Positions 10,115 through 52,355 of a DNA stretch of 64,000 bases are shown here, piece after piece. The notes beneath the pieces were generated by a model. It was not told the origin of the DNA. It saw nothing but the letters and a program-made list of their open reading frames with translations, and ran no database searches. Numbering within the stretch: the first letter of the stretch is position 1; every line of letters starts with the position of its first letter. The DNA lies in the NCBI GenBank assembly GCA_964386535.1, contig CAYLRY010000003.1, positions 39,210-103,209 on the forward strand. Reading direction: 5' to 3'. The position numbers and the translations under genes are program-made. The DNA is from an uncultured Dehalococcoidales bacterium (GTDB taxonomy: Bacteria; Chloroflexota; Dehalococcoidia; Dehalococcoidales; UBA3254).

Positions 10115-11161
10115 GTGTTTTTGGTAGCTGGTACGGAAGTGCAGGAAAGAAAATTTACTTGTAGCGGCGCCTCTATCAGCGTCTCATCAATAAGCAAGCG
10201 GTTCGGCAAAGTGCAGGCCCTGGACAACATGAGCCTGTCCGTGCAGCCGGGGATGATTTTTGCCCTGCTGGGGCCGAATGGCTCTGGCAAGACCACTCTG
10301 GTGCGCATTCTCACTACTTTGCTCAGGCCGGACTCCGGGAGCGCTCATATCGGCGACCTTGATGTGGTCAAAGAAGCCTCAAAGGTACGTCCTTTGATCG
10401 GCCTGGCCGGCCAGTACCCGGCGGTGGATGAGAACCTGACGGGCAGGGAAAACCTGGAGATGATCGGGCAGCTTTACCATATGGGCAGCCTTAAAGCCCG
10501 GGCACGCAGCCTGGAGCTGTTGCAAATCTTCGCCCTGTCTGAAGCGGGCGGCCGCCGGGTCAAAACCTACAGCGGCGGCATGCGGCGCCGCCTGGACCTG
10601 GCAGCCACCCTGGTGGCCAGTCCGCCCATCCTCTTCCTGGATGAACCCACTACCGGTTTGGATCCCCGCAGCCGCCTAGGACTGTGGGAGGTAATCAGCC
10701 GGCAGGCGAAAAACTGCAATACCGTTTTTCTCACCACGCAGTACCTGGAGGAAGCTGACCGGCTGGCCGATAAAATCGCCATCATGGAGAACGGCCGGGT
10801 TATCAGGCAGGGTACGCCCCAGGAGTTAAAGGAATGCTGCGGCGGCAGCACCCAGGTAAAAATCAAGCTGGCGGATCGAGTCAGTACCCGGGAGGCCGTG
10901 GCCGCCCTGAGTGAAATCAGCCTGGAAAGCGTTCACGTAAACCCCGAGACCAGTGAAATAAGCCTCCCTGCTTCAGATGGTGCCTCCGTGCTGACAAAAG
11001 TGGTCCGCCGCCTGGATGCAGCAGGTATTATAATTGAAGAAATCGGCCTCAAGCAGCCCACTCTTGATGACGTTTTCCTGGCCATTACCGGTCATGCCGC
11101 CCAAAAGACCGGCGAAGAAAAAGAAAAAACCGATCAGCCGCCAGGCGGGGATATTATTTGA
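10115..11161 (+). CDS. ABC exporter ATP-binding subunit (DrrA-like)
   Basis: Walker A GPNGSGKT, signature YSGGMRRR, Walker B FLDEPT. Exact start uncertain. Confidence 0.9.
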   Translation: MFLVAGTEVQERKFTCSGASISVSSISKRFGKVQALDNMSLSVQPGMIFALLGPNGSGKTTLVRILTTLLRPDSGSAHIGDLDVVKEASKVRPLIGLAGQYPAVDENLTGRENLEMIGQLYHMGSLKARARSLELLQIFALSEAGGRRVKTYSGGMRRRLDLAATLVASPPILFLDEPTTGLDPRSRLGLWEVISRQAKNCNTVFLTTQYLEEADRLADKIAIMENGRVIRQGTPQELKECCGGSTQVKIKLADRVSTREAVAALSEISLESVHVNPETSEISLPASDGASVLTKVVRRLDAAGIIIEEIGLKQPTLDDVFLAITGHAAQKTGEEKEKTDQPPGGDII

Positions 11162-11931
11162 GCGCAAAAATCAGAGAAACCATATCAGATATCATCGTCA
11201 TGACGCGGCGGGATGTCCTCAGATATCTCAGGCTGCCGCAATTACTGGTCTTCAACGCCCTGCTTAATGTGGTGCTACTGCTGCTTTTCAACTACGTATT
11301 CGGCGGCGCCATTAATACCGGGGGTTTAAAATATATACAATATTTCCTCCCTGGTTTTCTGGCGCAAACGGTCGTCTTCGGCTCCACCCAAACCAGTGTG
11401 GGCATAGCGGAAGACCTATCGAAAGGACTGATTGACCGTTTCCGTTCTCTGCCCATGGCACGAGCTGCCTTTATTTCCGGCCGGGTGCTGGCGGACGCTC
11501 TGCGCTATTTAATCCTCGTGATACTCATTATTGTGGTGGGACTGGCCATGGGCTTTCGCTTTGATAACGGGGCCGTTCCCGCTGTGACGGCAGTAGCCCT
11601 GATTCTCTTGTTCGGCATAGCCCTGACCTGGGTAGGGGTATTTATCGGAACATCGGTTAAAGATACCGAGACAGCCCAGGTGGCCGGGTTTGTCTGGGTG
11701 TTTCCTCTGGTTTTCGCCAGCTCTTTATATGTTCCCATAGAGACCATGCCCGGCTGGCTCCAGGCCTTTGCCAAAGTGAATCCGGTCAGCCCCATGGTAG
11801 ATACAGTCCGCGCCCTATCGCTGGGTGGCAACGTGTTTGATCCACTCTGGAAAATCCTGGCCTGGGACGCGGCGATCATGGCGATATTTATCCCCCTGGC
11901 CCTGCGGCGCTATAAGCAACTGGGCCAGTGA
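11158..11931 (+). CDS. ABC-2 type permease (DrrB-like)
   Basis: About 6 TM segments, GLIDRFRSLPM, FASSLYVPIETMPGWLQAFAKVNP; overlaps the ATPase stop. Confidence 0.9.
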   Translation: MSAKIRETISDIIVMTRRDVLRYLRLPQLLVFNALLNVVLLLLFNYVFGGAINTGGLKYIQYFLPGFLAQTVVFGSTQTSVGIAEDLSKGLIDRFRSLPMARAAFISGRVLADALRYLILVILIIVVGLAMGFRFDNGAVPAVTAVALILLFGIALTWVGVFIGTSVKDTETAQVAGFVWVFPLVFASSLYVPIETMPGWLQAFAKVNPVSPMVDTVRALSLGGNVFDPLWKILAWDAAIMAIFIPLALRRYKQLGQ

Positions 11932-12006
11932 AAAATTGAATATATGAAAAAGACTTCCGAAATCTTTTCCACGAATATGTCACCTGGAAAATTTGGGGGG
12001 AATTTT

Positions 12007-12475
12007 ATGAACATTATTAAAGAAACCCGCAGGCTTCGTTTTTACAATGTCTTTATGGGGATTTTGTACTTTATCCATATATGATATTATAGCCCTGATA
12101 GGACTGTTTAGCCTGACGACCTTAATGAACCTTTTTGGCCTGCTGATGGAGCAGCAAAAATGGGGTTCGGATAAACTGAATTGGATGGCCTTTTATATAG
12201 GATGTATAGTTGGTATAATTCCATGGATTTCTATTTCCATTTATTTTTTTGGTTCTGCCTCAACTGGTAAAATGCCTCTCTTCGTGTACTTTGTTTTGAT
12301 ATCTATCTTTATTCTCTTTTGTAGCTTTGCACTCAACATGTTTTTTCAATATAAAAGATGGGGACCCTGGCGGCACTATCTCTTCGGAGAAAAAGTCTAT
12401 ATTTCATTTCTTATAACTAAGAGTGCCCTGGCCTGGCAGGTGTTTTACGGCACTTTAAATCGTTCTATGTATTAG
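12007..12475 (+). pseudogene. Heliorhodopsin, internally deleted and frameshifted
   Basis: Frame 1 from ATG 12007 reads MNIIKETRRLRFYNVFMGILYFIH (HeR TM1-like). Frame 2 continues IYDIIALIGLF..MNLFGLLME..FYIGCIVGIIPW..FCSFALNMFFQYKRWGPW..YLFGEKVYI..TKSALAWQVFYGTL (HeR TM4-TM7 with the retinal Lys). The RWVEY region of TM3 is absent. Confidence 0.85.
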
Positions 12476-12511
12476 TTTGCGGCTTTTCTTTGAATAAATT
12501 AATAGATGTCC

Positions 12512-13453
12512 TTAAATCTTTCTATTCTGGTGTCGAGATCCCAGAAGATCACGTAAAGCTTGTTCCAGGTCAGGGAATTTGAAAACGAATCCGTTGTCCT
12601 CCAGTACCCTGGGTAAAACCCTCTGACCATTAACAAAAACCGAAGAGAATTGACCCAGCATTATTTGTAAAGCCAGCCCGGGTACAGGTGGCGCCCAGTT
12701 ACCCCTGCCCGTGGTTTTCGTCAATATCTTCAATATCTCTCTATTGCGCACGGGATTCGGGGAGGTGATATTGACTGGTCCACTTACCGCAGGCGTGTTA
12801 ATAAGAAAAAGAATTGCCCTCGCCAGATCCAGTTCGTGCACCCAGGAGATCCACTGCTCCCCGCTGCCCCAGTGGCTTCCAAGGTGAAATCTGACCAGAG
12901 TTGCCAGCTTTGGCAAAGCCCCCCCGTACATACCCAGTACATGCCCGAGACGGCATATTACCAGCCTGGCTCCTGAGTCCCCGGCCGGCTGTGCGGCAGC
13001 TTCCCATTTTGCCGCTACCTGCGCTATAAAATCCTGTCCTGCTGGATTATTCTCCATAAGTAAATCTTCTTGATGGAAACCGTAGTAACCCACCCCTGAT
13101 ACGCTGATAAAGTGCTTTACCTGGCCCCGTTGTTTCCTGATGGCTTCAACTATATTCCTGGTGGTCAGGATCCGGCTGTCTAGTATCTCCTTCTTTCCCC
13201 TTTTGTTCCAACGCCTGAAAATGGAAGCACCGGTCAGATTTATTACCACCTCATGACCGGAAATTCTGTCTTGCCATTCACCGGGTTTTAACACGTCAGC
13301 CTGAAAAACAGATATGTTGTCCTGGAGAAAAGGACCCGGAGTGGGATTACGAGATAAAATGGATATAGAGTGACCTGCAGCCAGCAGGGTTCTGGACAAA
13401 GTTTTGCCGATGAAACCGGTGCCGCCAATGATCAGTATTCTTAATTTATTCAT
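12512..13453 (-). CDS. TIGR01777-family (YfcH-like) NAD-dependent epimerase/oxidoreductase
   Basis: ILIIGGTGFIG, VINLTG, SGVGYYG, WEAAA, GSGEQWISWVH, QRVLP..L...GFVFKFP. Confidence 0.85.
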   Translation of the reverse strand: MNKLRILIIGGTGFIGKTLSRTLLAAGHSISILSRNPTPGPFLQDNISVFQADVLKPGEWQDRISGHEVVINLTGASIFRRWNKRGKKEILDSRILTTRNIVEAIRKQRGQVKHFISVSGVGYYGFHQEDLLMENNPAGQDFIAQVAAKWEAAAQPAGDSGARLVICRLGHVLGMYGGALPKLATLVRFHLGSHWGSGEQWISWVHELDLARAILFLINTPAVSGPVNITSPNPVRNREILKILTKTTGRGNWAPPVPGLALQIMLGQFSSVFVNGQRVLPRVLEDNGFVFKFPDLEQALRDLLGSRHQNRKI

Positions 13454-13498
13454 TCGGTTTAATTATACTCTGGCGGTTGGCAGCAGGATACTGGAAAT

Positions 13499-14260
13499 TT
13501 GAAAATGATTAAATCTCTTTCAACAAAACGGGGTGTCTGGTTCCGGTTATTTGTCGTCAGAATGACTTTGCGGAACATTATTTATATTTCGTACGCCTTG
13601 CCAGCAGAAACCTTGCAGCCGCTGGTTTCGGATGGCCTGCATCTGGCAACGATTGGTGATCAAAAGGCTTTTGTTTCACTGGTAGCTCTGCAAAGCACTT
13701 ATGTGAGATTGACCGCCTTTCCTGTTTTCAGGTTTCACTATTTCCAATTCAACATCAGGACTTATGTTATCGACCCGGTTTCTGGACAACCCGCAGTTTA
13801 CTTTCTTAGAAGTGGAGTGACTTCAAGATTCATATCTCTGGTTACCGGTACAATAGGGATCCCCTGGGAACATATTGAATTTAAAATCGATTTTAACGGC
13901 TCCGGTAAAGCCCGTTCCGCACTTATCTCCGGCAATTGGGAAGGCAACTTTTCTCTTAAAGTTAAGAGTGGGGCAAATGCTATCGCGGAACCGTCTTTAT
14001 TTCAGGATTGGAAATCAACTGTGGATTTTTTAATCAGGCCTTTGATAGGGATTTCCAGCGGTAGTCGCCAGCTCATGCGTTTTACCATCCGGCATCCCGA
14101 AGTTAACCCTCAAATTTGGTCACTGGAAAATATGTACAGCCCCCTGTTCAACAGGTTAGTCCCTGTGGATTTCTCAAAAAACCTGCACAGTGTTTTCTAC
14201 CTGCCTGAAACTGATTTTTCTATCTACCTGCCGCCGGAAAGAATAATTATGAAGGGGTGA
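13499..14260 (+). CDS. DUF2071 (YqjF-like) family protein
   Basis: ISYALPAETLQPLV, AFVSLV, FNIRTYV, G.PAVYFL pattern. Confidence 0.6.
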   Translation: MKMIKSLSTKRGVWFRLFVVRMTLRNIIYISYALPAETLQPLVSDGLHLATIGDQKAFVSLVALQSTYVRLTAFPVFRFHYFQFNIRTYVIDPVSGQPAVYFLRSGVTSRFISLVTGTIGIPWEHIEFKIDFNGSGKARSALISGNWEGNFSLKVKSGANAIAEPSLFQDWKSTVDFLIRPLIGISSGSRQLMRFTIRHPEVNPQIWSLENMYSPLFNRLVPVDFSKNLHSVFYLPETDFSIYLPPERIIMKG

Positions 14261-14269
14261 ATAAAAAAT

Positions 14270-14707
14270 ATGTGGATCATGGATGGCGTTCTGGCCGGAC
14301 TCATCGCCGGCGTAATTATGGGATTTGTATCGCAAATCAGTTACTGCTTCGGCATCCTGAAGTCGCATCTGATCATTATCGACGGGCGGTTCGCCTTACA
14401 AAAAATGAATCGGAATGATACCGGCCTGGCTGTTTATCTGACCGGTATTGTTCTCCATCTTATCACCAGTATGGTTTTTGGTATAATCTATGTCTTGATT
14501 GCCAGACTATTTGGCTTTGATGTCAGGAATATTACGATAATAATTATTTATTTTTTTATACTCTGGCTGGCTATGCTGTTTTTTGCTCTACCGGTAGCCG
14601 GCCAGGGATCCATGGGAAACAAAATCCACCGCTTCGTCTGGCTTGAACAGCTTGTGCTGCATATTATTTTTGGCCTCAGCTTCTGGGGCATTCTACAGAT
14701 CATCTGA
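14270..14707 (+). CDS. Small integral membrane protein (about 4 TM), function unknown
   Basis: Hydrophobic segments, GVLAGLIAG, HIIFG; follows the preceding gene by 9 nt. Confidence 0.7.
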   Translation: MWIMDGVLAGLIAGVIMGFVSQISYCFGILKSHLIIIDGRFALQKMNRNDTGLAVYLTGIVLHLITSMVFGIIYVLIARLFGFDVRNITIIIIYFFILWLAMLFFALPVAGQGSMGNKIHRFVWLEQLVLHIIFGLSFWGILQII

Positions 14708-14788
14708 TGCAAATTTTCTGGCGAACTTTATCTGCATCAAATCTGCCCTCCAAAGTCACAGCCTTCACCTTGCTCGCCTTTACGATTC

Positions 14789-14845
14789 AGACTGCTGAAA
14801 AAGAGGTCCCGGATGCCTCCGGGCGGGGGTTTGGGGGTGTCCCAC
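14789..14845 (-). repeat. Dispersed GC-rich hairpin repeat, copy 1
   Basis: Minus strand GGGACACCCCCAAACCCCCG-CCCGGA(GGCA)TCCGGG-ACCTCTTT; homologous to 44003-44050. Confidence 0.65.
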
Positions 14846-15035
14846 AAACCAAATTGAAAAAGTCCATTTTGAGAAGTGCAGGGATAATATAATAAAAAGA
14901 GAAGCTTAAATCACACGTGATTTCAATATACCTTTTGCGCCTGAGTCAGGGTAGAGGCTTAGGATATTTTCAAAGGTTATATTAAACACCCTGAATTTGT
15001 GAAATTATCTGAAGGAATAAGGTTTTGGCCCGGAT

Positions 15036-15473
15036 ATGATTGAAGGTGTATCAGGTTTTATCAAAAGACAGCTTGATTCACAACTTTTTGCTGTTCTGGC
15101 AACTCAGGCAGATGGATATCCTTATACCAATTTAATAGCCTTTGCCGCAGCGGACAATCTGAGGAGCATCATCTTTGTAACTAACAGAAATACACGAAAA
15201 TATACCAATACTATGGCCAAAAAACAGGTGGCGGTTCTGATTGACAACCGGACAAATCAGGCATCTGACCTTAATTCGGCAGTAGCTGTCACTGCTCTGG
15301 GTGCCGTTGAGGAAGCCGCCGGGAAGGATAAAGCCTGGCTTTCGGAAGTATTCCTTGCCAGGCACCCTGGACTCAAAACTTTTCTTCAAAATCCAGACAG
15401 CGCTCTTATGAGGATTGCCGTTTCTGATTATATTATCGCTACTTTCGAAGATACGCATCATTATTATGTTTAG
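15036..15473 (+). CDS. Pyridoxamine 5'-phosphate oxidase-like FMN-binding split-barrel protein
   Basis: FAVLATQADGYPYTNLIAF, TRKYTN, VAVLIDNR. Confidence 0.8.
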   Translation: MIEGVSGFIKRQLDSQLFAVLATQADGYPYTNLIAFAAADNLRSIIFVTNRNTRKYTNTMAKKQVAVLIDNRTNQASDLNSAVAVTALGAVEEAAGKDKAWLSEVFLARHPGLKTFLQNPDSALMRIAVSDYIIATFEDTHHYYV

Positions 15474-22125: not shown

Positions 22126-25100
22126 ATGATAGTTGTACATGCCTTTTGGGAAATCAACAGGGGGCTTCATCTCTGGGCTGAGTCTTCAGAAGAGGTTCAA
22201 GCCGCCGCACGTAAAAAGAAAGCCGGTCCGCAGGACCATCCTTTTATATTGCCTTATAATTCACTGGCCAAACTTGCCTTAGGTCTGGCTGATAACGTTA
22301 TTCTCAGTTCTGCCTCTGCCGGTAATCTGAGCGTACTTTTGCCCTCTGTAGATGAACGGCCTTTACCCTCTGAAGAATGCCTTATTAATACTGATAATGA
22401 CATTACCCTGTCCGGTCAAAAAGTGAAGCTGGCGCCCTGGAAAATCAACACTCTTTTTCTGGTTCCCGGTACTGCCATGGATTTTCTCTCCGCTCTGAAA
22501 AGCCGCCCTTCCGGAGGGACCGTCCTGGGTAGTTCTTTGCGTTTTTGGCGGGAGATGTCAAAGCTGTCTCTCGAGCTGGTTGCCCGGCAGAGCTTCTTAC
22601 CCTCAATCAGTGAAGAAATGCAGAACAATACCCGCAATTTCTTTGCTGTCTGGAAAACCCTGATTGGGGAAAAAGACCATGAAAGGATCAGAGTGTTAAA
22701 CGATTCCATGCCTCCCTGCTGCCGCTCGGTTCAATATAAAGATAAACAAAGTCCTTCTCCTGCGGCTTTGATACAGGATTTTCTAAACCGGACCGTTGAT
22801 TATTTTATTCGAAAAAACCTGGCTGCTGAATTTGCCAGGCAGCGGGTTGCCGGCCGCAGGGGCAGGCTTTCCCTGGCCGGGGCCTGGTTAAAAGCCCTTT
22901 CCTCCCTGGAAAACCAGATCCAGGCGCCTGAGGCCAAATTGGCTGCTTTTACCGGTGAATTGGAAGCCTGGCTTAACCAGGTGACAGCAGTCGCTGCCGG
23001 TTCCCCTTTACGCACGTCGTTTCGCCTGGAGCCGCCGGAAGACAGTAACCGTGACTGGCACCTTACCTTTAATTTGCAGGCCTCCGAAGACCGCAGTTTG
23101 CTGATCCCGGCTGAGAAAGTCTGGCGTACCCGGTCCGGCGTGATTACTTTTTTAAAACAGCGTTTTGAAAACCCACAGGAACGATTGCTGGCTGACCTGG
23201 GCCGGGCCTCCAGGATATACCCACCTATTGAAGAAAGCCTTACCACCGCCTGCCCAGTAGGTCTGAGACTTAATACCGAAAAAGCTTATCAATTTTTACG
23301 GCAGTATGCTTCCCTTCTGGAAGAGAGCGGGTTTGGTGTACTTCTACCGGTTTGGTGGCAAAAACCGGCGCTGCGTCTGGGCGCCAGGTTGAAATTGAAA
23401 CCAAAGAGCGGGACTAAAGGGCCAGGTACCGGGCTCATGGGTTTGAATGCCATTGTAGAATATGAATGGGAAATCGCTTTAGGCGATACCACCCTTTCGG
23501 CGGAAGAGTTTGAAAAACTGGCCGGTTTGAAGGTGCCGCTGGTCAGGGTCCGCGGACAGTGGGTGGAGCTTAAGCCTGAGGAAATTGAGAAAGCTGCCGC
23601 CTTCTTTAAGAATGGTGAAGTTGGCGAAATGAATCTGGGGGAGGCCGTTCGCGCCGGTTTGGGACAGGATGTCTCGGATGCCGGTTTGCCCGTGGCCGGG
23701 GTGGAAGCAGAAGGCTGGATCAGAGATTTTCTGGAGACCTTTTCCCGAAATGCTGCCCGTATGCCGGCTGTTGAACCGCCGTCCGGCTTTAATGGACAGC
23801 TACGCCCCTACCAGCTTACCGGGGTTTCCTGGATGGCTTTTTTGCAACAGTTCGGCCTGGGGGCTTGCCTGGCGGATGACATGGGGCTGGGTAAAACCAT
23901 TGAGTTTATCTCACTCCTGCTCCATCTTAAGGCTGAAGGACTGCTTACAGGACCCAGTCTTCTCATCTGTCCCATGTCTGTTGTCAACAACTGGCAGAGA
24001 GAGATAGAACGCTTCGCGCCTTCACTTAAAGTGCTGGTCCATCACGGTCCGGCAAGGGATACCGGAGATACCCTGGTACGTCAGGCTAAGAAACAGGATA
24101 TTGTGGTCACTACTTATGCCCTGGTCCACCGGGATGCAGCGTCCCTTACAAAAATCAACTGGGAATGCCTGGTTCTGGATGAAGCGCAGAACATTAAAAA
24201 TCCATCTGCTAGGCAGTCACAGGCCGTCCGGAAATTAAAGAGCCGTTACCGCATCGCCTTAACCGGTACGCCTGTGGAGAACCGTCTTTCTGAATTATGG
24301 TCGATCATGGAGTTCCTCAATCCGGGTTATCTGAAATCAGCAAAGGACTTCCAGACCAGTTTCGTCACCCCGATTGAAAAATACCACAGTCCGACGCATA
24401 CCGAGAGGCTGAAGCGGTTGATCCAGCCCTTTGTTCTGCGCCGTGTCAAGACTGATCCTACCATCATCAGCGACCTGCCGGAGAAGATAGAGACTAAGGT
24501 CTTCTGCAACCTGACCCGGGAGCAGGCCACCCTTTATGAGGCTGTTGTTAAAGAAATGCTGGAGAAGATTGAAAATTCTAAGGGAATGGTACGCAAGGGT
24601 CTGGTTTTATCCACCCTGTTAAAACTTAAACAGGTCTGCAACCACCCTGCTCAGTTCCTCCAGGACCGCAGTATGTTGCCTGGCCGCTCAGGGAAACTCC
24701 TGAGACTGGAGGAAATGCTGGAGGAGATACTGGCGGAAGGTGACAAAACGCTCATCTTTACCCAGTTTGCCGAAATGGGAAAAATGCTAAAACAGCATCT
24801 TCAGGAAACCTTTACCTGTGAAGCCCTTTTCCTACACGGTGGCACCCCCCGCAAAGAGCGTGATGCCCTGATCCAGCGTTTTCAAAATGACCGCCGGGGA
24901 CCTTCTTTATTCATTCTTTCTTTAAAAGCCGGAGGGGTGGGATTGAATTTAACTGCCGCCAATCATGTCTTTCATTTTGATCGATGGTGGAACCCGGCAG
25001 TGGAAAACCAGGCTACTGATAGAGCTTTTCGCATCGGGCAAAAGAAAAAAGTCCAGGTGCATAAATTTGTGTGTCTGGGCACTTTGGAAGAGCGTATCGA

Positions 25101-25230
25101 TGAAATGATCGAGCATAAAAAAGAGCTGGCGCAGAATATCGTAGGCACTGGCGAAGCCTGGCTCACAGAGATGTCAACTGACCAGTTGAAACAGGTGCTC
25201 TCTCTGAGCCGCGAAACGGTGGAGGTTTAA
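22126..25230 (+). CDS. SNF2-family helicase/ATPase
   Basis: LADDMGLGKT, DEAQ, ALTGTPVEN, LIFTQF, GGVGLNLT, DRWWNPAVENQATDRAFRIGQ. Confidence 0.93.
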   Translation: MIVVHAFWEINRGLHLWAESSEEVQAAARKKKAGPQDHPFILPYNSLAKLALGLADNVILSSASAGNLSVLLPSVDERPLPSEECLINTDNDITLSGQKVKLAPWKINTLFLVPGTAMDFLSALKSRPSGGTVLGSSLRFWREMSKLSLELVARQSFLPSISEEMQNNTRNFFAVWKTLIGEKDHERIRVLNDSMPPCCRSVQYKDKQSPSPAALIQDFLNRTVDYFIRKNLAAEFARQRVAGRRGRLSLAGAWLKALSSLENQIQAPEAKLAAFTGELEAWLNQVTAVAAGSPLRTSFRLEPPEDSNRDWHLTFNLQASEDRSLLIPAEKVWRTRSGVITFLKQRFENPQERLLADLGRASRIYPPIEESLTTACPVGLRLNTEKAYQFLRQYASLLEESGFGVLLPVWWQKPALRLGARLKLKPKSGTKGPGTGLMGLNAIVEYEWEIALGDTTLSAEEFEKLAGLKVPLVRVRGQWVELKPEEIEKAAAFFKNGEVGEMNLGEAVRAGLGQDVSDAGLPVAGVEAEGWIRDFLETFSRNAARMPAVEPPSGFNGQLRPYQLTGVSWMAFLQQFGLGACLADDMGLGKTIEFISLLLHLKAEGLLTGPSLLICPMSVVNNWQREIERFAPSLKVLVHHGPARDTGDTLVRQAKKQDIVVTTYALVHRDAASLTKINWECLVLDEAQNIKNPSARQSQAVRKLKSRYRIALTGTPVENRLSELWSIMEFLNPGYLKSAKDFQTSFVTPIEKYHSPTHTERLKRLIQPFVLRRVKTDPTIISDLPEKIETKVFCNLTREQATLYEAVVKEMLEKIENSKGMVRKGLVLSTLLKLKQVCNHPAQFLQDRSMLPGRSGKLLRLEEMLEEILAEGDKTLIFTQFAEMGKMLKQHLQETFTCEALFLHGGTPRKERDALIQRFQNDRRGPSLFILSLKAGGVGLNLTAANHVFHFDRWWNPAVENQATDRAFRIGQKKKVQVHKFVCLGTLEERIDEMIEHKKELAQNIVGTGEAWLTEMSTDQLKQVLSLSRETVEV

Positions 25231-25231
25231 C

Positions 25232-26101
25232 ATGAGCTGGGGTCACTGGCATTATCATCCTGCGCGGCCGAAGGCCGTCAAAAACGGGATTAAAGCTAAA
25301 AGCCAGCGCGGCGCCATCGGTGAGACCTGGTGGTCCGGACGCTGGGTTTCTGTTCTGGAATCCCTGGGTATGGGCGCTAGACTGGGCCGCGGACGTTCTT
25401 ACGCCCGCCGGGGACAGGTAGTTTCCATCAATGTTCAGAAGGGACAGGTCATTGCTGAAGTCCAGGGCACACGGCCAGAGCCTTACTCTATCAGTATACG
25501 CCTGACCCCTCTTTCCGATCAGGACTGGGAGAAAGTCACGGATGCCATGGCCTCCCAGGCCGTCTTTGCCGCCAGACTACTTGCCGGTGAGATGCCGCAA
25601 AACATCGAGGAGGCTTTCACCGGAGCTAAAGTCAGCCTATTCCCGAAGTCCGGTAAGTCCCTGAACACCGAGTGCTCTTGCCCGGATTATGCCAACCCGT
25701 GTAAACATATCGCAGCGGTGTACTACATTCTGGCTGAAATGTTCGATACGGATCCATTTTTAATTTTTAAACTGCGGGGCAGGACCAAAGAGGAAATTAT
25801 TCAGACACTCCGTCAAAAACGGGGTCAGACATTGGATCAGGAAAATGCGGCGCCTTGCGAAATTGAATTGCCTCCGGAAAGTACCGTCAGGCCCCTGGAA
25901 GACTGCCTGGCGGATTTCTGGCAGGCCGGCGAAGCCCTGGATTCTTTTGTGATTAACCTGGCTCCTCCGGAAATAGAAGGCGCTGTCCTTAAAAGGCTCG
26001 GCAAGCCGCCGGAAGCCTTAGCCGGAACAGGTCTGGAAACTGAGCTGGCCAGATTCTACTCTGTGGCTGGTAAAGCGGCCCTGCAATCCGGCTTAAAATA
26101 A
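25232..26101 (+). CDS. SWIM zinc-finger protein, partner of SNF2
   Basis: CSCPD..NPCKH SWIM motif, RLGRGRSYAR, DPFLIFKLRG; starts 1 nt after the SNF2 stop. Confidence 0.9.
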   Translation: MSWGHWHYHPARPKAVKNGIKAKSQRGAIGETWWSGRWVSVLESLGMGARLGRGRSYARRGQVVSINVQKGQVIAEVQGTRPEPYSISIRLTPLSDQDWEKVTDAMASQAVFAARLLAGEMPQNIEEAFTGAKVSLFPKSGKSLNTECSCPDYANPCKHIAAVYYILAEMFDTDPFLIFKLRGRTKEEIIQTLRQKRGQTLDQENAAPCEIELPPESTVRPLEDCLADFWQAGEALDSFVINLAPPEIEGAVLKRLGKPPEALAGTGLETELARFYSVAGKAALQSGLK

Positions 26102-34209: not shown

Positions 34210-36642
34210 ATGATAGCAGGGGCCACCCGGGATGTAAATATTGAGGAAGAATTAAAGAGTTCTTACCTGGACTATGCTATGAGCGTCATCGTCTCCCGGG
34301 CTTTGCCGGACGTACGGGATGGGTTGAAACCGGTACAGCGCCGGATTCTTTATGCCATGCAGGACATGGGATTAACCCGTAGCAGCGCACATAAAAAGAG
34401 CGCCCGCATTGTGGGTGAAGTGCTGGGCAAGTATCATCCCCATGGTGATGCCTCAGTGTATGATACCATGGTCCGCCTTGCGCAGGACTTTTCCATGCGC
34501 TATCCGCTGATAGACGGACAGGGCAACTTTGGAAGCGTTGATAATGATCCTCCTGCAGCCATGCGCTATACTGAAGCCCGTCTTTCAGCCATTGCTGAAC
34601 AGATGCTGGTGGATATTGAAAAAGACACTGTTGATTTCGTACCCAATTTTGATGATAGCCTGAGAGAACCTGCCGTATTGCCCGCCCTCCTACCGAACTT
34701 GCTGGTCAACGGAAGTTCCGGGATTGCAGTGGGCATGGCAACCAATATTCCGCCCCACAATTTGATTGAGGTCTGTGACGCAGTTTCTTTCCTGGTAGAT
34801 AACCCTGAAGCTACCGTCGATGACCTGATGCAGTTTATTAAAGGACCTGATTTTCCTACCGCAGGCATTATTTTGGGCAAAGACGGTATACGCAGTGCCT
34901 ACGCTACCGGACATGGGCGGGTGGTAGTACGGGCTAAGGTACATGTGGCAGACATCCCTGGAGGACTGGGACGGCGTGAAATAATCGTTACCGAATTGCC
35001 TTATCAGACCAACAAGGCCGCCCTGGTGGAACGCATTGCAGGGCTGGTGAAGGACAAAAAAGTAACCGGAATCAGTGAAGTCCGTGATGAGTCTGACCGT
35101 CAGGGTATGCGGGTGGTGATTGAACTGAAAAGAGAGGCTCAACCCCCCCAGGTCCTGAACGCCCTGTATAAATATACAGCCATGCAATCCGCTTTCTTCG
35201 TGAACATGCTGGCCCTGGTAGATGGTCAACCCCGTGTTATCAGCCTGAAAGAAGCTCTGGACTATTATATACAGTTCCGACAGGAAGTTATCACTCGCCG
35301 GACCAAATTTGATCTAGCAGGGGCTAAAGCCCGGGCCCATATTCTGGAAGGACTCAAGATTGCCCTGGACCACATAGATGAGGTTATCAGGACCATCAGG
35401 GAATCCGAGACCGCCGATACGGCCCGCAAGAATCTGATGTCCAAATTCGGTCTTTCGCAGATTCAGTCTCAGGCTATACTGGATATGCAGTTACGCAGAC
35501 TGGCTAACCTTGAACGCAACAAGATTCTGGAGGAATACGAACAGGTATTGAAAACCATTGCTTATCTGGAAGACCTTCTGGCTAACAAGAAAAAAATCCT
35601 CTTTCTGGTTAAGGAAGAGATCAGCCAGCTAAAATCTAAACACGGTGACGCCCGCCGGACAGAGATCAGCGAACAGGCTGTTATGGACTTTGTGATAGAA
35701 GAGGTCCCTCATGAGAGGGTGGTGGTAACTCTTAGCGGACGCGGTTTCATTAAAAGGATACCAGCCGCGGTCTACCGCTCCCAGCACAGGCGCGGCAAAG
35801 GCGTTAAAGGCATGGGAATCCGGGAAGCGGATGCCGTGAAATTCCTGAGTGTAGCGGATACCCACGATAATCTGTTCTTTTTCACCAATCTGGGGAAAGT
35901 CTATCATCTGAAATGTCACGAAATACCGGCAGATGCCTCCCGAACAGCTAAAGGTCTGGCAATAGTCAATCTTTTCCCCATTGTAGAAGGAGAAAGGGTC
36001 ACGGCCATAGTGTCAGTGACTGATTTCAAACCGGACAGCTATCTGTTGATGGCTACGGAAAAAGGCGAGATCAAGAAAACCGCCCTTGAATATTTCGAGT
36101 CCGTGCGTAACAGTGGTATCATTGCCATGGATCTGGAGGAAGGCGATGAACTGGTAGCCGCCGGTCTGGCTTCAGACCAGGATGATGTGGTGTTAATTAC
36201 TGAACAGGGTCAGTCGATCCGCTTTCTGGTTGAAAGCCTGCGCAGCAGTTCACGTACCTCTGGTGGAGTCCGCGGGATCCGCCTGGAAGAGGGGGATAAA
36301 CTAGTCAGCATGTCCGTTGTCATCCCGGAGGCTTACCTGCTGGTTGTAACTGATAACGGCTATGGAAAGCTGACGCCTATTGCTTATTATAAACAGCAGG
36401 CCAGGGGTGGCGTAGGTATCAAGACCTTAAAGGTTACGGACAAAACGGGTAAAGTGGCGGCTGCCAGGCTGGTTACCCAGTCCCAGCAGTTGATGATCAT
36501 ATCCAAAGACGGCATGGTCATGTCAACCCCGGTCAAGGATGCTGAAGGTGGAATTCCGGTTCTGGGCAGAGATACCCAGGGTGTTATAATAATGCGAACT
36601 GAAGAAGGAGACTGCGTAGCGGCAATTGCCGCCTGGGATTAA
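34210..36642 (+). CDS. gyrA: DNA gyrase subunit A
   Basis: [31 protein letters not shown] catalytic Tyr, GyrA-box QHRRGKG, beta-pinwheel C-terminal domain. Confidence 0.97.
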
Positions 36643-46837: not shown

Positions 46838-47953
46838 ATGGAAAGATTTCGAAAAGTGCTGGAAAACCATCATCAATATGCCAGGAATTGGAAAGCCAGG
46901 ACCGGAGGTAAAGTTATTGGCTACCTTTGTCCCTACACAGCGGAGGAGGTGGCCTATGCAGCAGGAGTACTGCCGGTCCGCCTGCTGAGCGAAAATGAAC
47001 CTGATGAAATCACCGACCGCTACTTTTACGGCAACTGCAATTGCACCCGTGACATCCTCAACCAGATTCTAAAAGGCAGATACGACTACCTTGACGGAGC
47101 GGTACATTTCAACGGCTGCGAATGGCAGGAAAGGACTTTTGAAAGCTGGAAATATCATCAGCCTCTTCCATATATGCATTATGTGTATACCACTAATTAT
47201 GTTGAAGGCATCCGGGCAAAGAACTTGATGCGGTCGGAACTGGAAGCTTTCAAAAAGTCGCTGGAGGAATGGACCGGGAAAATTATCACTAACCAGGCGC
47301 TTGACAGAGCTATTGATATTTACAACACCAATCGACGGCTTATGCGGCAAATATATGAGTTGCGACGGTTGGATAATCCCCCGGTCTCCGGTGCAGAAGC
47401 CATGGAAATGGTGCTGGCCAGCCAGATAATGGATAAAGAAGAACACAACCAACTGCTTACCGGGGTACTCAGGGAACTTCCGGAGCGCAAGGGTATTAAA
47501 AATGTTGGTGTACGGCTGATGCTGCGGGGCAGCCCTACTCATAATACCAGGATGGAAAGACTGATAGAGTCGCTAGGTGCGACTATAGTGATCGATGAAC
47601 TGTGTACGGGCTCTGCCTACTTCTGGAATGAGGTTATCCCCCAGGAAGACCGCCTCATGGCTATAGCCCTGCGTTACCTGGATAAGCCCCCTTGTCCTGA
47701 AAAAGAAATCAGGTACGCCTCCCGTCCTGCCCATGTCCTCCAATTGATCGAGCGTTACAATGTGCAGGGAGTGGTAATTGACAAGCAGGTCTATTGCGAC
47801 CCTCATGGCAGCGATAACCACCGCATCTGGGCCACTCTCCGTGAACGGTATATTCCTTTCCATTATATCGAACGCGATACCACTCTGCCGGCTGGAGAAA
47901 TGGAAGCACGGATAGAGGCTTTCATAGACATGTTAAAACCCGAATTGGTGTAG
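46838..47953 (+). CDS. bzdN: Class I benzoyl-CoA reductase subunit (BzdN/BcrC-like)
   Basis: YARNWKARTGGKVIGYLC, EEVAYAAGVLPVR, DELCTG, YCDPH; 2-hydroxyacyl-CoA dehydratase fold. Confidence 0.75.
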   Translation: MERFRKVLENHHQYARNWKARTGGKVIGYLCPYTAEEVAYAAGVLPVRLLSENEPDEITDRYFYGNCNCTRDILNQILKGRYDYLDGAVHFNGCEWQERTFESWKYHQPLPYMHYVYTTNYVEGIRAKNLMRSELEAFKKSLEEWTGKIITNQALDRAIDIYNTNRRLMRQIYELRRLDNPPVSGAEAMEMVLASQIMDKEEHNQLLTGVLRELPERKGIKNVGVRLMLRGSPTHNTRMERLIESLGATIVIDELCTGSAYFWNEVIPQEDRLMAIALRYLDKPPCPEKEIRYASRPAHVLQLIERYNVQGVVIDKQVYCDPHGSDNHRIWATLRERYIPFHYIERDTTLPAGEMEARIEAFIDMLKPELV

Positions 47954-48003
47954 ATTTTTAAAAACAGAACTTGTTATGTTATTGTCCCAACAGGAGTAAT
48001 AAG

Positions 48004-49317
48004 ATGAGCGGTAATCAAAGAACTACCAAGTATGAAACCAGGCCCCTGGAATGCTGGGCTAAAGCCAAAGAGCTCAGGCGGAATTTTGAGAAAGACATAG
48101 GTGATACTGTAAACAAAAAAGAGGAGATTTTTGTATATGGCGGACACCTAGGCTTTGTACCCGGTTTTGACAACATGCGCACTGCCGTTCCATCCCCGCA
48201 GGGGATGATGTGCGAATGGGCTACGCCCAGATACGCTCTAGAGTGCCGGGCTAAAGCTGAAATGATGGGACACGGCCGTGAAATCTGCGGCTATCATCTG
48301 AACGTTTTCGGCGAGATTTATTTTAACCGCCATTATCTGGGAGGGCCGACCCCCAAGCCATTATTGATTTCGCCTGCGCCGGCAGTATGCGACCACCACC
48401 AGTATCCGTACAAGACTATTGCTAACTATTTCAAATGCGCCTACGTGCAGGCCTCTTGCCCGAGATATGTGGGTCCTATTGACCCTGCCAGAGAAAAAGC
48501 CATGCGCGAAACCGTTATCCAGGAAAGGCTGGATATCCTGGAACAGGTAAAACATGTTCTAGGAAGAAAATTCAATGAAGAGAACTATGTTGAAAGCGTC
48601 AAGCGCGGCTATCGCGTTCAGGCCTTAAGGGATCAGGCAGGCATGCAGCAGATGAACATTCCCGCGCCTTTAAGCTGTAAGGACATGTACTCCTTTATGA
48701 CGCTTGGCGGGATGCAGGCCACTGACCCGGAAGAAACTCTGGCTTTCTGGAGAATGCTTAACGATGAACTTGAGTGGAGGGTAAAAAATAAAATTGCGGC
48801 CGTGGGCAACGAAAGGTACCGCTGGGTGGAGGAGCATCCACCGCCATGGCGTTTCTTAAGATATTACCGCTATATGGAAAAATATGGCGCTGTGTGCGTC
48901 GGCACGGTTTACGCGGGTCTGCCCAAGCTGAAACAGCAACCTGATGGCACCTGGGTCCGCAAAAAGAATCCCCTGGAACTGGGGGTACCGATGAATACGG
49001 TGGAAGAATGCATCCGGGCTGATGTAGAGTCGCAGGAATTCGGAAATTTTGATGATAGACAAATGGGCCTGGGAGGCACGCTGGATATTGCCAAAGCCTA
49101 TAAAGCAGACGGGGCATTCCTATCGCTCTGGCGCAGTGCAGTAGGCTGTGCTCAGGCCAGGCGTGAAAACGGGCTGCTGTTGGAAAAAGAAGGAATAAAG
49201 GTACTGTACTATGAAGGCTCACAACCGGGCAATCAAATTGACCTGGATGAAATGCATATGCTTGACCAACTGGATGTCTTTATGGAGACCCAGGGATTAA
49301 GAAAGCTGGAAGATTAA
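48004..49317 (+). CDS. bzdO: Class I benzoyl-CoA reductase subunit (BzdO/BcrB-like)
   Basis: YET.PLECWAKAKELR, GREICGY, IPAPLS.KDMYS, NERYRW....PPPW, GSQPG. Confidence 0.75.
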   Translation: MSGNQRTTKYETRPLECWAKAKELRRNFEKDIGDTVNKKEEIFVYGGHLGFVPGFDNMRTAVPSPQGMMCEWATPRYALECRAKAEMMGHGREICGYHLNVFGEIYFNRHYLGGPTPKPLLISPAPAVCDHHQYPYKTIANYFKCAYVQASCPRYVGPIDPAREKAMRETVIQERLDILEQVKHVLGRKFNEENYVESVKRGYRVQALRDQAGMQQMNIPAPLSCKDMYSFMTLGGMQATDPEETLAFWRMLNDELEWRVKNKIAAVGNERYRWVEEHPPPWRFLRYYRYMEKYGAVCVGTVYAGLPKLKQQPDGTWVRKKNPLELGVPMNTVEECIRADVESQEFGNFDDRQMGLGGTLDIAKAYKADGAFLSLWRSAVGCAQARRENGLLLEKEGIKVLYYEGSQPGNQIDLDEMHMLDQLDVFMETQGLRKLED

Positions 49318-49327
49318 GGAGAATAAT

Positions 49328-50098
49328 ATGATCACAGCCGGCATTGATGTAGGCATTGAAAATACCAGGGTAGTGATCCTTAAGGACAGCCAGGTTCTGG
49401 CCCGCAAACAGGCGCCCTCAGGCGGTGCGGGACGGGCTGCAACAGTCGAACAGGTCTGGCAAGAGGCGCTGAAAGAAGCCGGAATTCAGGCCTCTGATGT
49501 CAGCCAGGTCATCGCCACCGGGCAGGGAAAGTACGATGTTAAGTTTGCCAGCTACTCTATTGTAGAGCCTCTGGCTGATGCCAGGGCAGCCGCCTGGTTA
49601 TACCCTTCGGCCAGGTCGGTTGTTGATATCGGATGCGACCAGGCACGAGCCATGAATTTTGAGTCCGGTGGTAAAATCACCGGTACCGTCTTAAATCAGA
49701 AATGCGCCGCCGGCATCGGTATGTATCTTACCTCACTGGCCCGTATGCTGGGAATGACGCTGGAGGAGATGAGCCTGATATCAGGTAAACCACCGGATAA
49801 ATTGACTATCAACGAACGCTGCTGCTGCTTTGCCGAAATAGATACCCATTCCCTGCTCCTGAATGACACTCCCAGGAAAGACGTTATTCAGGCCACGTTT
49901 GAGGCTGCTGCCTCCAGGATCAACTCTATGCTGAACGAGAAAATTACACTCGAGAAAGACGTAGTGCTGGTCGGCGGCGTAGCCAGGAACAACGGGGTGG
50001 TAGAAGCTTTGAAAAGACATTCCGGTATCAATTTTTTAATTCCGGAACAACCGGAGTTTACCGGCGCCCTGGGTGCAGCCATCATTGCTGCTGGTTAA
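49328..50098 (+). CDS. bzdP: Benzoyl-CoA reductase activator subunit (BzdP/BcrD-like ASKHA ATPase)
   Basis: AGIDVG, ATGQGK, DIG.DQ.R, NQKCAAG, VGGVARN, ALGAA. Confidence 0.72.
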   Translation: MITAGIDVGIENTRVVILKDSQVLARKQAPSGGAGRAATVEQVWQEALKEAGIQASDVSQVIATGQGKYDVKFASYSIVEPLADARAAAWLYPSARSVVDIGCDQARAMNFESGGKITGTVLNQKCAAGIGMYLTSLARMLGMTLEEMSLISGKPPDKLTINERCCCFAEIDTHSLLLNDTPRKDVIQATFEAAASRINSMLNEKITLEKDVVLVGGVARNNGVVEALKRHSGINFLIPEQPEFTGALGAAIIAAG

Positions 50099-50169
50099 AA
50101 CCCGGAAATCATATTATGTTAAAAAGAACCCCTCTATAACTGAATCTGCAAATGAATGAGGTGGATGAA

Positions 50170-51036
50170 ATGACTGGACAATATGGAAAATGGCCTGAGA
50201 CCAGATGGACATCGGCGCATATCGACCCTGAAAAAGCTAAAACCATCGTAGCCGGAGTGGATGTAGGCGTCGTCAGCACTCAGGCAGTTGTTATGTGCGA
50301 CGATCAGCTTTATTCATATGCCAACTTGAGAACCTGGCCGGACGGCTTTGGCGATAGCGCTGTGAAAGCTATGGAGCAGGCTCTACAGAATACCGGTTTG
50401 AAATCAAAAGATGTCCGCTATACCGTGGCAACCGGTTACGGGAAGAAAAAGGCTAAATTCGCTCAAAAGACTGTAAACGAAGTCGCTTGCCACGGCCTGG
50501 GCGCCCGCTATATGTATGGGAACACCGTCAGGACTGTTCTGGATATGGGCGGCGAGACCTGCAAGGCGATCAGGCTTAATGAGTGGGGTAAAGTTTTTGA
50601 TTTCGCAGTTAATGACAAATGCTCCACCGGCTTTGGAGAAGCCATAGAAAATTTTGCAGAGCTCGCCCAGGTACCCATACAGGAAATGGGTGAAAGGTCA
50701 CTTACCGTTAAAGAGGAACCAGAGCTGCCAGTAAGCACCACCTGTCGCATCTTTGCTAACACAGAAGCCATTGGATTGCTGCGCGGCGGTATACAGGAAA
50801 ACGAGATGTTAGCTACCTACTTATTTACTATTGCCTGGCGGCTTTTTACTCTGGCCGGGCAGATAAACCCGAAAGAAGGCCTGGCTCTGACCGGCGGGCT
50901 GGCCAAGAATCAGGGAGTGGTCAAACGACTGGAGACAGCGCTGAAGATGAAGGCGCTGTCTACCACCTATGACCCTCAACTGGCCGGGGCTATCGGTGCC
51001 GCTGTCTTTGCCGGAATGCTGGCGAAAAAAGAATAG
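50170..51036 (+). CDS. bzdQ: Benzoyl-CoA reductase activator subunit (BzdQ/BcrA-like ASKHA ATPase)
   Basis: WPETRW N-terminus, AGVDVG, ATGYG, NEVACH, DMGGETCK, NDKCSTG, TGGLAKN. Confidence 0.75.
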   Translation: MTGQYGKWPETRWTSAHIDPEKAKTIVAGVDVGVVSTQAVVMCDDQLYSYANLRTWPDGFGDSAVKAMEQALQNTGLKSKDVRYTVATGYGKKKAKFAQKTVNEVACHGLGARYMYGNTVRTVLDMGGETCKAIRLNEWGKVFDFAVNDKCSTGFGEAIENFAELAQVPIQEMGERSLTVKEEPELPVSTTCRIFANTEAIGLLRGGIQENEMLATYLFTIAWRLFTLAGQINPKEGLALTGGLAKNQGVVKRLETALKMKALSTTYDPQLAGAIGAAVFAGMLAKKE

Positions 51037-51038
51037 TA

Positions 51039-52355
51039 TTACCGGTCTTCCAGTAGCTCAAAAAAGCGTACTATATTTTCACGCATCTCATCGGCAGAGA
51101 CCACGGTGGGGTCGGTAATATCACACGGTAGGTCGAGCACGGGAATTCCAGCCTCCATTAAAGCATCCCGCACCAGGCGACTGGCTCCCCCAAATGAACC
51201 ACATCCAATATGGGCAAAATTAATTGCTCCATCCACCTTATATTCGTTGACATACAGCTTGAGATTATCCAGCATGGCTTGATCAATAGGTCCGCAAATG
51301 CCCATCAAAGGGTTCATAAAGCTCTTTTTTGCCAAACTGAACAACGCCTCTGAAGCCTCCAGAATGCCTGGTTGCCAGTCCAGAAAAAAGGGATTGACCA
51401 CCTCTATTGCTGCATATTCCTGGAATATATCCTTCAGAGTACCAATATAATACAGGGGTGGGAGGTTCAAGTTAATCAGGCGGAACCTCTCAAATGGCTC
51501 TTTTCCCGTAGCCCGGTGTATTTTAGTAACCAGTTCATTACGAAGATTTTTAAGATAAATGGTGGCGTCAGCCTGACCACCTAATAGAAGATTGATCATA
51601 AACACCCGGATAAAGGTAAACGAAGTGAAAGGTGAGGGGACATTTTTCCTTAGCTTGGATATTTCCCGGCACAGTTCAATTTGCTCGTTGGACCGGGTTA
51701 TTGCTTGCGACAAACGGTGATAGTCCATCTTGTGCCCGGACTGTTCTTCTAAAAAGGATATCAATTTCTTATATTCTTCTACCAGATATTCTTTTTCTCC
51801 GGGATCACCATTATAGGGATGGTCCAAGAAGAAAGCAGGACAATCATTTATCTTGGCTAAAAGAGCGCCGCTTTTAGCGCCATTCTCACAGGGTATATTG
51901 GTCCACAGCACAGCATCAGGCCGCGGGAGTAATCCTCTGGTAAAAGCTCCAGTCATCAGCCGGTGAACAGAACAAATTTCCGTGGCCAGCCCGGCTTCAC
52001 TGGCTGCTGTGAGTAATTGAGAAGTATCTCCTGTGAGCATGGCTAATAGCCATCCGGTAGCCTCAAGCTGGAAGGGCACGATATCCATTGCATAAAATAT
52101 TTCCACCGGACAGCCCAGAGAATAGGCAGCAACAAAACGATTTTTCTTACTGGCTCTCAACACTTTGGCATAATAGTCCACCGCCAGGCTCAGATAAAGT
52201 CTATCACTTCTTGGGACTTTAGGATTAAGTAAATTTATCTTCGCCGCCAGGCGGTAAGCTCGAAAAAGCGCTTCTACTTTACCTAAACCACTGGTTTCGG
52301 TTGCGGAGTTCTTAATTATCGCTTCAGATACTATTTTAGAAAGATCAATCTTCAA
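51039..52355 (-). CDS. 2-hydroxyacyl-CoA dehydratase/Bcr family subunit (orphan)
   Basis: PVEIFYAMD, EICS.H, PCENG, VDGAINF...GC, LDLPCD..DP. Confidence 0.8.
   Translation of the reverse strand: MKIDLSKIVSEAIIKNSATETSGLGKVEALFRAYRLAAKINLLNPKVPRSDRLYLSLAVDYYAKVLRASKKNRFVAAYSLGCPVEIFYAMDIVPFQLEATGWLLAMLTGDTSQLLTAASEAGLATEICSVHRLMTGAFTRGLLPRPDAVLWTNIPCENGAKSGALLAKINDCPAFFLDHPYNGDPGEKEYLVEEYKKLISFLEEQSGHKMDYHRLSQAITRSNEQIELCREISKLRKNVPSPFTSFTFIRVFMINLLLGGQADATIYLKNLRNELVTKIHRATGKEPFERFRLINLNLPPLYYIGTLKDIFQEYAAIEVVNPFFLDWQPGILEASEALFSLAKKSFMNPLMGICGPIDQAMLDNLKLYVNEYKVDGAINFAHIGCGSFGGASRLVRDALMEAGIPVLDLPCDITDPTVVSADEMRENIVRFFELLEDR

Follow-up and report, generated by a model that had tools for sequence, protein, structure and literature searches.

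A heliorhodopsin pseudogene probably formed by a 302-nt deletion in an anaerobic Dehalococcoidales bacterium that has also lost a linked photolyase

The DNA analysed here, a stretch of 64 kb referred to as the window, carries a remnant of a heliorhodopsin (HeR) gene that is very probably a pseudogene, created by a 302-nt deletion in a dark-living, anaerobic member of the Dehalococcoidales; the remnant is decaying, and a photolyase gene linked to it has been lost as well. The linked photolyase loss is newly found here: both photon-dependent genes of the locus are remnants, and the genes between and around them are intact. The case is a new, well-documented pseudogene of a known family, and is otherwise an ordinary and unsurprising instance of gene decay.

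The retained pieces of the heliorhodopsin gene

The remnant consists of two pieces that lie in different reading frames of the + strand. The 5′ piece (12007–12078) holds the native start codon, the N terminus, and the first third of transmembrane helix 1 (TM1; MNIIKETRRLRFYNVFMGILYFIH). From the ATG at 12007, frame 1 encodes MNIIKETRRLRFYNVFMGILYFIHI before a stop codon at 12082–12084, past the junction, so that the native start gives only 25 residues. The 5′ piece, which is too short for detection by Pfam, gave no match in the Pfam search. All six-frame peptides of the window were searched for the HeR N-terminal/TM1 motif with a 16-column HMM based on 148 homologues; the top match of this HMM is 12031–12066 (E = 0.0036, runner-up 0.66), and this match ends about ten bases 5′ of the start of the C-terminal homology.

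The 3′ piece (12077–12475, + strand) is in the +1 frame and encodes TM4–TM7, the Schiff-base Lys, and the stop codon. It is enclosed by a frame 2 open reading frame (ORF) of 142 aa (12047–12475), which matches the Pfam heliorhodopsin family PF18761 with 152.7 bits (E = 1.4e-44, gathering cut-off 26.7 bits) over profile positions 113–242 of 242 only. The same ORF matches the C-terminal halves of HeRs in the PDB (6is6 residues 130–257, E = 3.3e-35; 48C12, 6su3, E = 1.4e-29), and it is listed in protein databases as “heliorhodopsin.” The 133 HeR-derived codons, 72–75% identical in translation to HeRs of three relatives (L002, L083, and L003), contain no stop codon. The Schiff-base Lys is present (codon 12419–12421, in ...ITKSALAWQ), and one residue is absent just N-terminal of it, where the window has YISF-LITK against the canonical YILLSLVAK. 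The initial annotation, made from the letters alone, had described a HeR TM1 start in frame 1 joined to TM4–TM7 in frame 2, with the Lys (TKSALAWQ) kept and one nearby residue missing, and had proposed a HeR profile search; the translation, the N-terminal HMM, and the PF18761 and PDB matches all agree with that description.

Of the features that define the family, the remnant retains the PF18761 profile match and the retinal-binding Lys of TM7. Seven TM helices in a single frame are not found, as only the first third of TM1 (frame 1) and TM4–TM7 (frame 2) remain; the TM3 Arg and counterion Glu (R-W-x-E-Y) are gone with the whole of TM3, which falls inside the deletion; and of the conserved His residues in TM1 and TM2, the former is replaced by Tyr and the position of the latter is deleted. 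The presence of both Arg and Lys is the criterion used by Chazan et al. to exclude HeR pseudogenes (bioRxiv 10.1101/2021.02.16.431466). The remnant is a heliorhodopsin by descent that fails the functional criteria of the family, and it is predicted to form no retinal pigment and to have no photocycle because TM2–TM3 and the counterion are missing. A caution for annotation follows from the 142-aa ORF, which passes the Pfam threshold: surveys based on profile hits would score this genome as HeR-positive.

The deletion junction

The two pieces meet at 12076–12078 (+ strand), where the sequence reads TAC TTT ATC CA|T ATA TAT GAT. Homology on the left runs through 12077 (the CA of a Gln codon), and homology on the right begins at 12077; had the ancestral Gly codon been GGC, as it is in L002, it would begin one base earlier, at 12076. 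This leaves a possible microhomology of 1–2 nt, (C)A. In all five full-length relatives compared (L083, L003, L001, L084, and L085), exactly 100 residues lie between the Gln of the TM1 H-L-x-Q motif and the I/V-Y-D that opens TM4, and at the codon level the comparison with these five gives a deletion of 100 codons plus 2 nt, or 302 nt. A tblastn alignment with the L083 protein starts at its residue 125 (the Ile of IYD), which corresponds to window position 12077. The missing 100-residue segment was found nowhere else in the window. Since 302 nt equals 100 codons plus 2 nt, the coding frame shifts from frame 1 to frame 2, and comparison with the relatives points to a single 302-nt deletion as the source of both the missing segment and the frame shift.

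In an AlphaFold2 model of a relative (P0004, mean pLDDT 73.5), the deleted residues form the end of TM1, the β-hairpin, TM2, and TM3, and the helix map from this model has all of TM4–TM7 retained in the window. Among the lost residues are those of the R-W-x-E-Y stretch, which holds both the conserved Arg and the counterion Glu. The earlier claim of a HeR gene disabled by one large internal deletion, with roughly 100 codons including RWVEY gone, can now be made more exact: the alignment to intact homologues that it recommended places the ends at 12076–12078, the deletion shifts the frame, and the TM3 segment lies inside the gap.

That the junction exists in the organism was examined with Logan contigs, which are assembled run by run. 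Contigs from two wastewater runs (X1 and X2, study P1) span the junction with 0 and 1 difference over 1,501 bases. A 314-nt contig from a biogas fermenter (X3, study P2, 2025; 11882–12195) crosses it with 0 differences, and a 151-nt contig from sludge (X16, study P14, 2023; 11955–12105) crosses it with 1 difference. Searches of runs X13, X14, X18, and X20–X23 found nothing of the region. Because the junction is present in independent contigs from three studies and the deletion ends hold no collapsible repeat, the deletion is taken as real DNA and not as an assembly artefact; the stretch that had been singled out for a misassembly check, 12070–12090, thus recurs in per-run contigs of four runs. 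A minority intact allele may coexist in the same populations.

Decay of the remnant

The retained region has changed at positions where the family does not. Changes were counted at the alignment columns where at least 95% of sequences agree. The window has 5 substitutions there and has lost a Ser that is invariant in 160 of 160 sequences; the 160 other HeRs, gathered from genome and metagenome contigs, average 0.29 changes, and none of them exceeds 4. In the 5′ piece, the TM1 His found in 160 of 161 homologues is Tyr, and at the junction a Gln invariant in 162 of 162 is His.

A 192-nt contig from an anaerobic digester (X17) represents a sister strain about 95% identical to the window and covers 12332–12520, so that the comparison below concerns 63 codons in one low-depth contig. 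Relative to the window, this contig has AAG inserted behind 12408, the changes C12405T, A12416G, and C12374G, and three synonymous changes. It translates to the canonical ...WRDYLFGEKVYILLSLIAKSALAWQ..., where the window has ...WRHYLFGEKVYISF-LITKSALAWQ.... The secondary lesions of the window in TM7 (12404–12418, + strand), immediately before the Lys, are a 3-nt deletion between 12408 and 12409 that fuses a Leu and a Ser codon into Phe, and the substitutions Leu to Ser (12405) and Ala to Thr (12416); a further substitution, Asp to His, lies upstream (12374). The deleted Ser is the invariant residue four positions before the Lys, and the new Thr replaces the Ala that adjoins it. The window holds the derived state at all three non-synonymous differences and at the indel, all of which fall at family-invariant sites; these lesions are also recent, because the sister strain has the canonical motif.

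For the neighbouring ABC-2 permease gene, the window differs from the X17 strain by 7 synonymous and 3 non-synonymous changes, and from a second strain, X4, by 11 and 5. The X4 strain is about 93–94% identical and shares variants with X17; its sequence diverges right after the ABC-2 stop codon (loose end GAAGCATATATTAAAAAATAGACGCCTTTA), at a point that maps to 11932–12006, and no contig recovered from this strain covers 11933–12331.

In relative-rate counts, the window branch has 12–19 unique amino-acid changes against 3–9 in intact members of the clade, in 15 of 15 comparisons; individual p values are 0.004–0.4, and the intact relatives are balanced among themselves. Pairwise synonymous divergence to the relatives is saturated (pS 0.65–0.87), and pairwise dN/dS is thus uninformative. 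The substitution pattern, in small numbers, is what relaxed selection predicts, and selection no longer maintains the remnant as a rhodopsin. That its frame is still open would be expected soon after a recent event, and is also compatible with retention.

The survey of relatives that had been suggested at the outset shows 160 of 162 other HeR loci to be unbroken or cut by contig ends only. In an ENA metagenome contig whose HeR is 75% identical to the remnant (L002:1040–1110), 10 nt are missing in TM1: GLRYYN|EIQH* is read in one frame and ...TLIQGIII in the next, the conserved M-G and His are lost, and the HeR is called only from an internal TTG. Either the contig is in error here, or the clade holds a second HeR lesion of independent origin. 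In a JGI contig (L001:5240–5410, HeR P0007), the HeR frame breaks off after ...LFQYN, so that TM7 and the Lys are missing; the rest of the contig is unrelated sequence whose translation is a fasciclin-like domain (27 protein letters not shown), and the contig end is either chimeric or rearranged. Recurrent “half heliorhodopsins” of 137–144 aa, which start at a conserved internal Met, were considered as a truncated gene family and rejected, as both of the two checked are artefacts: the L165 copy stops where its contig does, and an N-gap in the scaffold interrupts that of L164.

The photolyase stub and the flanking genes

Directly upstream of the remnant and on the same strand lies an intact ABC transporter pair (10115–11931): a DrrA-type ATPase (10115–11161, +; Pfam ABC_tran and DrrA1-3_C) and an ABC-2 permease (11158–11931, +; Pfam ABC2_membrane), whose stop codon is 75 nt before the HeR start. 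Downstream are three further intact genes, a TIGR01777/DUF1731 SDR epimerase (12512–13453, −) and a DUF2071 gene (13499–14260, +), both assigned by Pfam, and a gene for a 145-aa membrane protein (14270–14707, +). These three form a conserved cluster, with 70%, 63%, and 64% identity, respectively, over the full length to their counterparts in L163.

In the contigs of the three closest epimerase homologues that we looked up (69–71% identity; P0260, P0261, and P0263), the order is photolyase, 145-aa gene, DUF2071 gene, epimerase. The photolyase of these relatives (426–455 aa) is convergent with the 145-aa gene, the two overlapping slightly, by a few bases; beyond the photolyase, the P0261 contig continues with an ArsC-like gene and then a PNPOx gene. 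In the window, the corresponding position (14699–14768, −) holds a remnant of about 70 nt that encodes the last ~23 codons of a photolyase (...LEGRFDADK/FARKFASDD*) with one frameshift. Its frameshift-aware local alignment to the last 23 residues of the L163 photolyase scores 55, against 24.5 ± 3.8 in shuffles, none of 200 of which reach 55, and the X1 contig matches this stretch without differences. The remaining ~1.3 kb of the gene is gone. The scar is closed by a PNPOx-family gene (15036–15473, +; Pfam PNPOx_N), and the gap between the 145-aa gene and this gene is 328 nt in the window and about 1.9 kb in the P0261 contig, a difference of ~1.5 kb. Elsewhere in the window, tblastn with two photolyases (E ≤ 1) found no photolyase, and the PF00875 and FAD-binding domains are absent. 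By this comparison, a photolyase that relatives carry at this locus, 2 kb from the HeR, has been lost here down to a stub. The epimerases of the photolyase-bearing relatives share only about 70% identity with that of the window, so that this loss may have come before or after the HeR deletion.

A longer photolyase remnant, reaching to ~14853 and suggested by a tblastn match (FGxxDxP...), was rejected, as the stretch coincides with a dispersed short repeat. This repeat is a G-rich element of ~45–60 nt (14788–14847; ...GGTCCCGGATGCCTCCGGGCGGGGGTTTGGGGGTGTCCC...) that abuts the stub. It occurs in at least 7 other X1 contigs and in several contigs of X3 and X4, its local depth is up to 52 against 9.7, and it is present once in the window, with no Rfam match and a fold no better than that of shuffles. 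It may be a dispersed intergenic repeat or a miniature mobile element, perhaps linked to the deletion. An Rfam scan of 11800–15200 found nothing.

No syntenic intact HeR was recovered: none of the HeR loci on 160 contigs from genomes and metagenomes has a flanking gene in common with the window, and no HeR lies on the corresponding side of the closest epimerase homologues. In L165 (780–2524), a HeR cut by the contig end (P0038) is convergent to an ABC-2 permease and a DrrA-type ATPase, the same type of transporter as in the window. A 92-aa DUF3243 gene, absent from the window, lies just upstream of the HeR in L001 (4141–4419) and L002 (179–457), and in L001 the genes upstream of the HeR are SOUL, PNPOx, DDE transposase, photolyase, and DUF3243.

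Host, habitat, and origin of the gene

The host can be assigned to the Dehalococcoidales (Chloroflexota) by its GyrA (34210–36642), which is 87% identical to proteins named for Dehalococcoidales bacterium MAGs at NCBI. The window encodes an anaerobic sulfatase maturase, 2-hydroxyglutaryl-CoA-dehydratase/BcrAD-type enzymes, a flavin reductase-rubredoxin, and ferredoxins. Enzymes of the HGD-D/BcrAD type are oxygen-sensitive and typical of strict anaerobes. Their genes (46838–52355) comprise three HGD-D family subunits and two BcrAD/BadFG-type activator ATPases beside a ferredoxin-domain protein, a cluster that is either a 2-hydroxyacyl-CoA dehydratase or benzoyl-CoA-reductase-like. Elsewhere in the window (22126–26101), a 1,034-aa SNF2-type helicase (NCBIfam SCO1167/SCO6262 family, also resembling ZorD/DrmD) is followed by a SWIM zinc-finger protein; this pair could be defence-like or chromatin-remodelling and is unrelated to the HeR finding. 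The runs that hold the sequence are labelled wastewater, sludge, biogas-fermenter, anaerobic-digester, or industrial-waste metagenome, with two exceptions labelled only “bioreactor metagenome” and “metagenome.” We infer an anaerobic host living in dark wastewater, sludge, and digester systems, with the habitat read from run metadata only.

The closest full-length proteins to the remnant are P0002 and P0004. The nearest HeRs in species-representative genomes belong to Dehalococcoidales: the HeR of L003 shares 72% identity with the remnant and 74% with the query P0004, and other Dehalococcoidales HeRs form a block at 57–64% identity to P0004. Anaerobic Dehalococcoidia are a described HeR-bearing cluster (bioRxiv 10.1101/2021.02.01.429150). 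Because the nearest genomic HeRs are in the same order and such a cluster is known, the gene is at home in the Dehalococcoidales. The GC content drops to 35–39% exactly over 11900–12600, which comprises the remnant and two intergenic spacers, between flanks of 50–59%; the HeR genes of L083, L003, and L001 are only 2–4 points below the rest of their loci, and the drop in the window is much larger. Lateral transfer of the HeR within the order is possible and is hinted at by this trough and by the unshared flanking genes. The initial annotation had an anaerobic lineage acquire a light sensor and then lose it, perhaps on moving to a dark habitat. The loss stands, by the deletion, the derived lesions, and the photolyase stub; the acquisition is only hinted at, by the GC trough and the unshared flanking genes, in an order where HeR is at home. 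The tie to a dark habitat fits the invariant-site lesions, the photolyase stub, and the labels of the source runs.

Coding capacity of the 3′ frame

The native start at 12007 retains a G-rich, Shine-Dalgarno-like stretch, and no such sequence precedes the ATG at 12047 that opens the 142-aa ORF. Scans for promoters and terminators found matches in numbers at or close to those expected by chance, with nothing placed to drive or end the ORF. A single metatranscriptome run holds any of the region, in the form of one read-length contig of 151 nt (12336–12486) at depth 2, a signal no greater than the sparse, DNA-like background elsewhere in 20 kb. The earlier idea of a truncated membrane protein made from this ORF finds no support, given the missing Shine-Dalgarno sequence at 12047, the decay of the residues beside the Lys, and an RNA signal that is uninformative.

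Proposed history and alternatives

In the favoured history, a single 302-nt deletion, which probably arose by slippage or end-joining at the 1–2 nt microhomology, would have removed the end of TM1, the β-hairpin, TM2, and TM3 with its Arg and counterion Glu, and pushed TM4–TM7 into the +1 frame. Translation from the native start would then have ended after 25 residues, as it does now. The remnant would next have gained its changes at invariant sites, including the 3-nt deletion and the two substitutions beside the retinal-binding Lys, and the photolyase 2 kb away would have been lost as well. Absence of light is the likely cause of the relaxed selection, and the order of events given here is likewise a reconstruction.

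That order is the point on which the most credible alternative differs. Function may have been lost before the deletion, through an earlier point mutation such as the TM1 His to Tyr change or through lost retinal supply, so that the 302-nt deletion was a later step of decay. The Tyr at a near-invariant His position (160 of 161) fits this sequence of events, and removal of the photolyase by a separate event suggests general relaxation and not one accident. However, the order of events is not readable from one sequence, the X17 contig covering 12332–12520 only, and a Dehalococcoidia HeR with both conserved His residues replaced has been reported to still form pigment (bioRxiv 10.1101/2021.02.16.431466); we regard an earlier loss as possible and rather unlikely. 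An assembly artefact, in which the genome holds an intact HeR and the 302-nt gap comes from collapsed or mis-joined reads, is suggested by the metagenomic origin of the contig from which the window derives and by the assembly faults that break other HeR entries in the databases, such as the N-gap in L164. Yet the junction recurs with 0–1 mismatches in four runs from three studies and different years, deletion ends that share only 1–2 nt offer no repeat to collapse, and the additional lesions of the remnant are not of a kind that an assembler creates, which makes this explanation exceedingly improbable.

Two further readings concern the function of the locus. The ABC transporter, HeR, SDR, DUF2071 protein, membrane protein, and photolyase might form a linked light-response module, both photon-dependent parts of which were lost together in a dark-digester lineage. 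We consider this unlikely; if true, it would be natural genetic evidence that the HeR and photolyase of anaerobic Dehalococcoidales function as a unit, and that no light-independent role of HeR is worth retaining. Less likely still than such a module is a retained TM4–TM7 ORF whose product would partner the upstream ABC transporter without retinal. The more general form of that idea, a four-helix membrane protein made from the 142-aa ORF or from a shorter internal start and given a new light-independent role, for example docking to the transporter, draws on an ORF open for 142 codons that keeps most of the conserved C-terminal motifs, on the transporter operon 75 nt upstream on the same strand, which makes read-through transcription plausible, on the 151-nt metatranscriptome contig over 12336–12486, and on the report that HeRs can regulate ABC transporters by direct binding (PMC11109279). 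Against it, the ATG at 12047 has no Shine-Dalgarno sequence and the native start, which keeps one, leads to a 25-aa dead end; the window branch has changed precisely at family-invariant positions where the sister strain has not; the RNA signal is a single read-length contig at depth 2, at background level; and the truncated form is seen only in near-identical strains. The known orientation of HeR is N-in, and we infer from this that a fragment beginning with TM4 would need the opposite N-terminal topology. A retained truncated protein is accordingly given very little weight, and a decaying pseudogene is the reading that we carry forward.

The function of HeR is debated, and the roles proposed for it are regulatory, such as aiding photolyase, glutamine synthetase, or ABC transporters. 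A clean natural HeR knockout in an anaerobe confined to dark engineered systems, accompanied by photolyase loss and by a sister strain that has the canonical motif, is of some comparative value in this context. It suggests that HeR is dispensable without light in this lineage and that HeR and photolyase share a selective fate.

Comparison with known systems

Dark-adapted lineages lose light-dependent genes; subterranean or deep-living organisms, for example, have lost photolyase and opsin genes. The present locus shares with them the decay of photon-dependent genes beside intact neighbours in an organism from dark habitats; it differs in being bacterial, in concerning a heliorhodopsin, and in the physical linkage of the two lost genes, with the habitat known from run metadata only.

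Among the HeRs of anaerobic Chloroflexota (PF18761; structures TaHeR, 6is6, and 48C12, 6su3), TM4–TM7 of the remnant are closest to L002, L083, and L003 (72–75% identity), with about 50% identity to TaHeR. The remnant shares with this group the TM7 Lys, the ...KSALAWQ motif, and the N-terminal L-R-x-(F/Y)-N-x-x-M-G, and its host is of the same order as the nearest genomic copies. It differs in having 100 residues fewer, in its frame shift, in the TM1 His to Tyr change, and in the one missing and two changed residues beside the Lys; its GC content is 37%, against 41–44% in the genes of the closest relatives (L083, L003, L001, and L002).

The classes of genes described in the literature as neighbours of HeR are photolyase, ABC transporters, SDR oxidoreductases, and PNPOx (bioRxiv 10.1101/2021.02.16.431466; PMC11109279), and a HeR has been reported to bind and assist photolyase (TfHeR, PMC9769723). 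Compared with the HeR-photolyase neighbourhood of TfHeR (PMC9769723) and the HeR-ABC neighbourhood of OcHeR-OmrDE (PMC11109279), the locus described here combines, by gene content, an ABC transporter, an SDR oxidoreductase, a photolyase, and PNPOx. The transporter in the window is of the DrrA/ABC-2 type, whereas that of OcHeR is of the heterodimeric OmrDE type, and here both light-dependent members of the neighbourhood, HeR and photolyase, are remnants.
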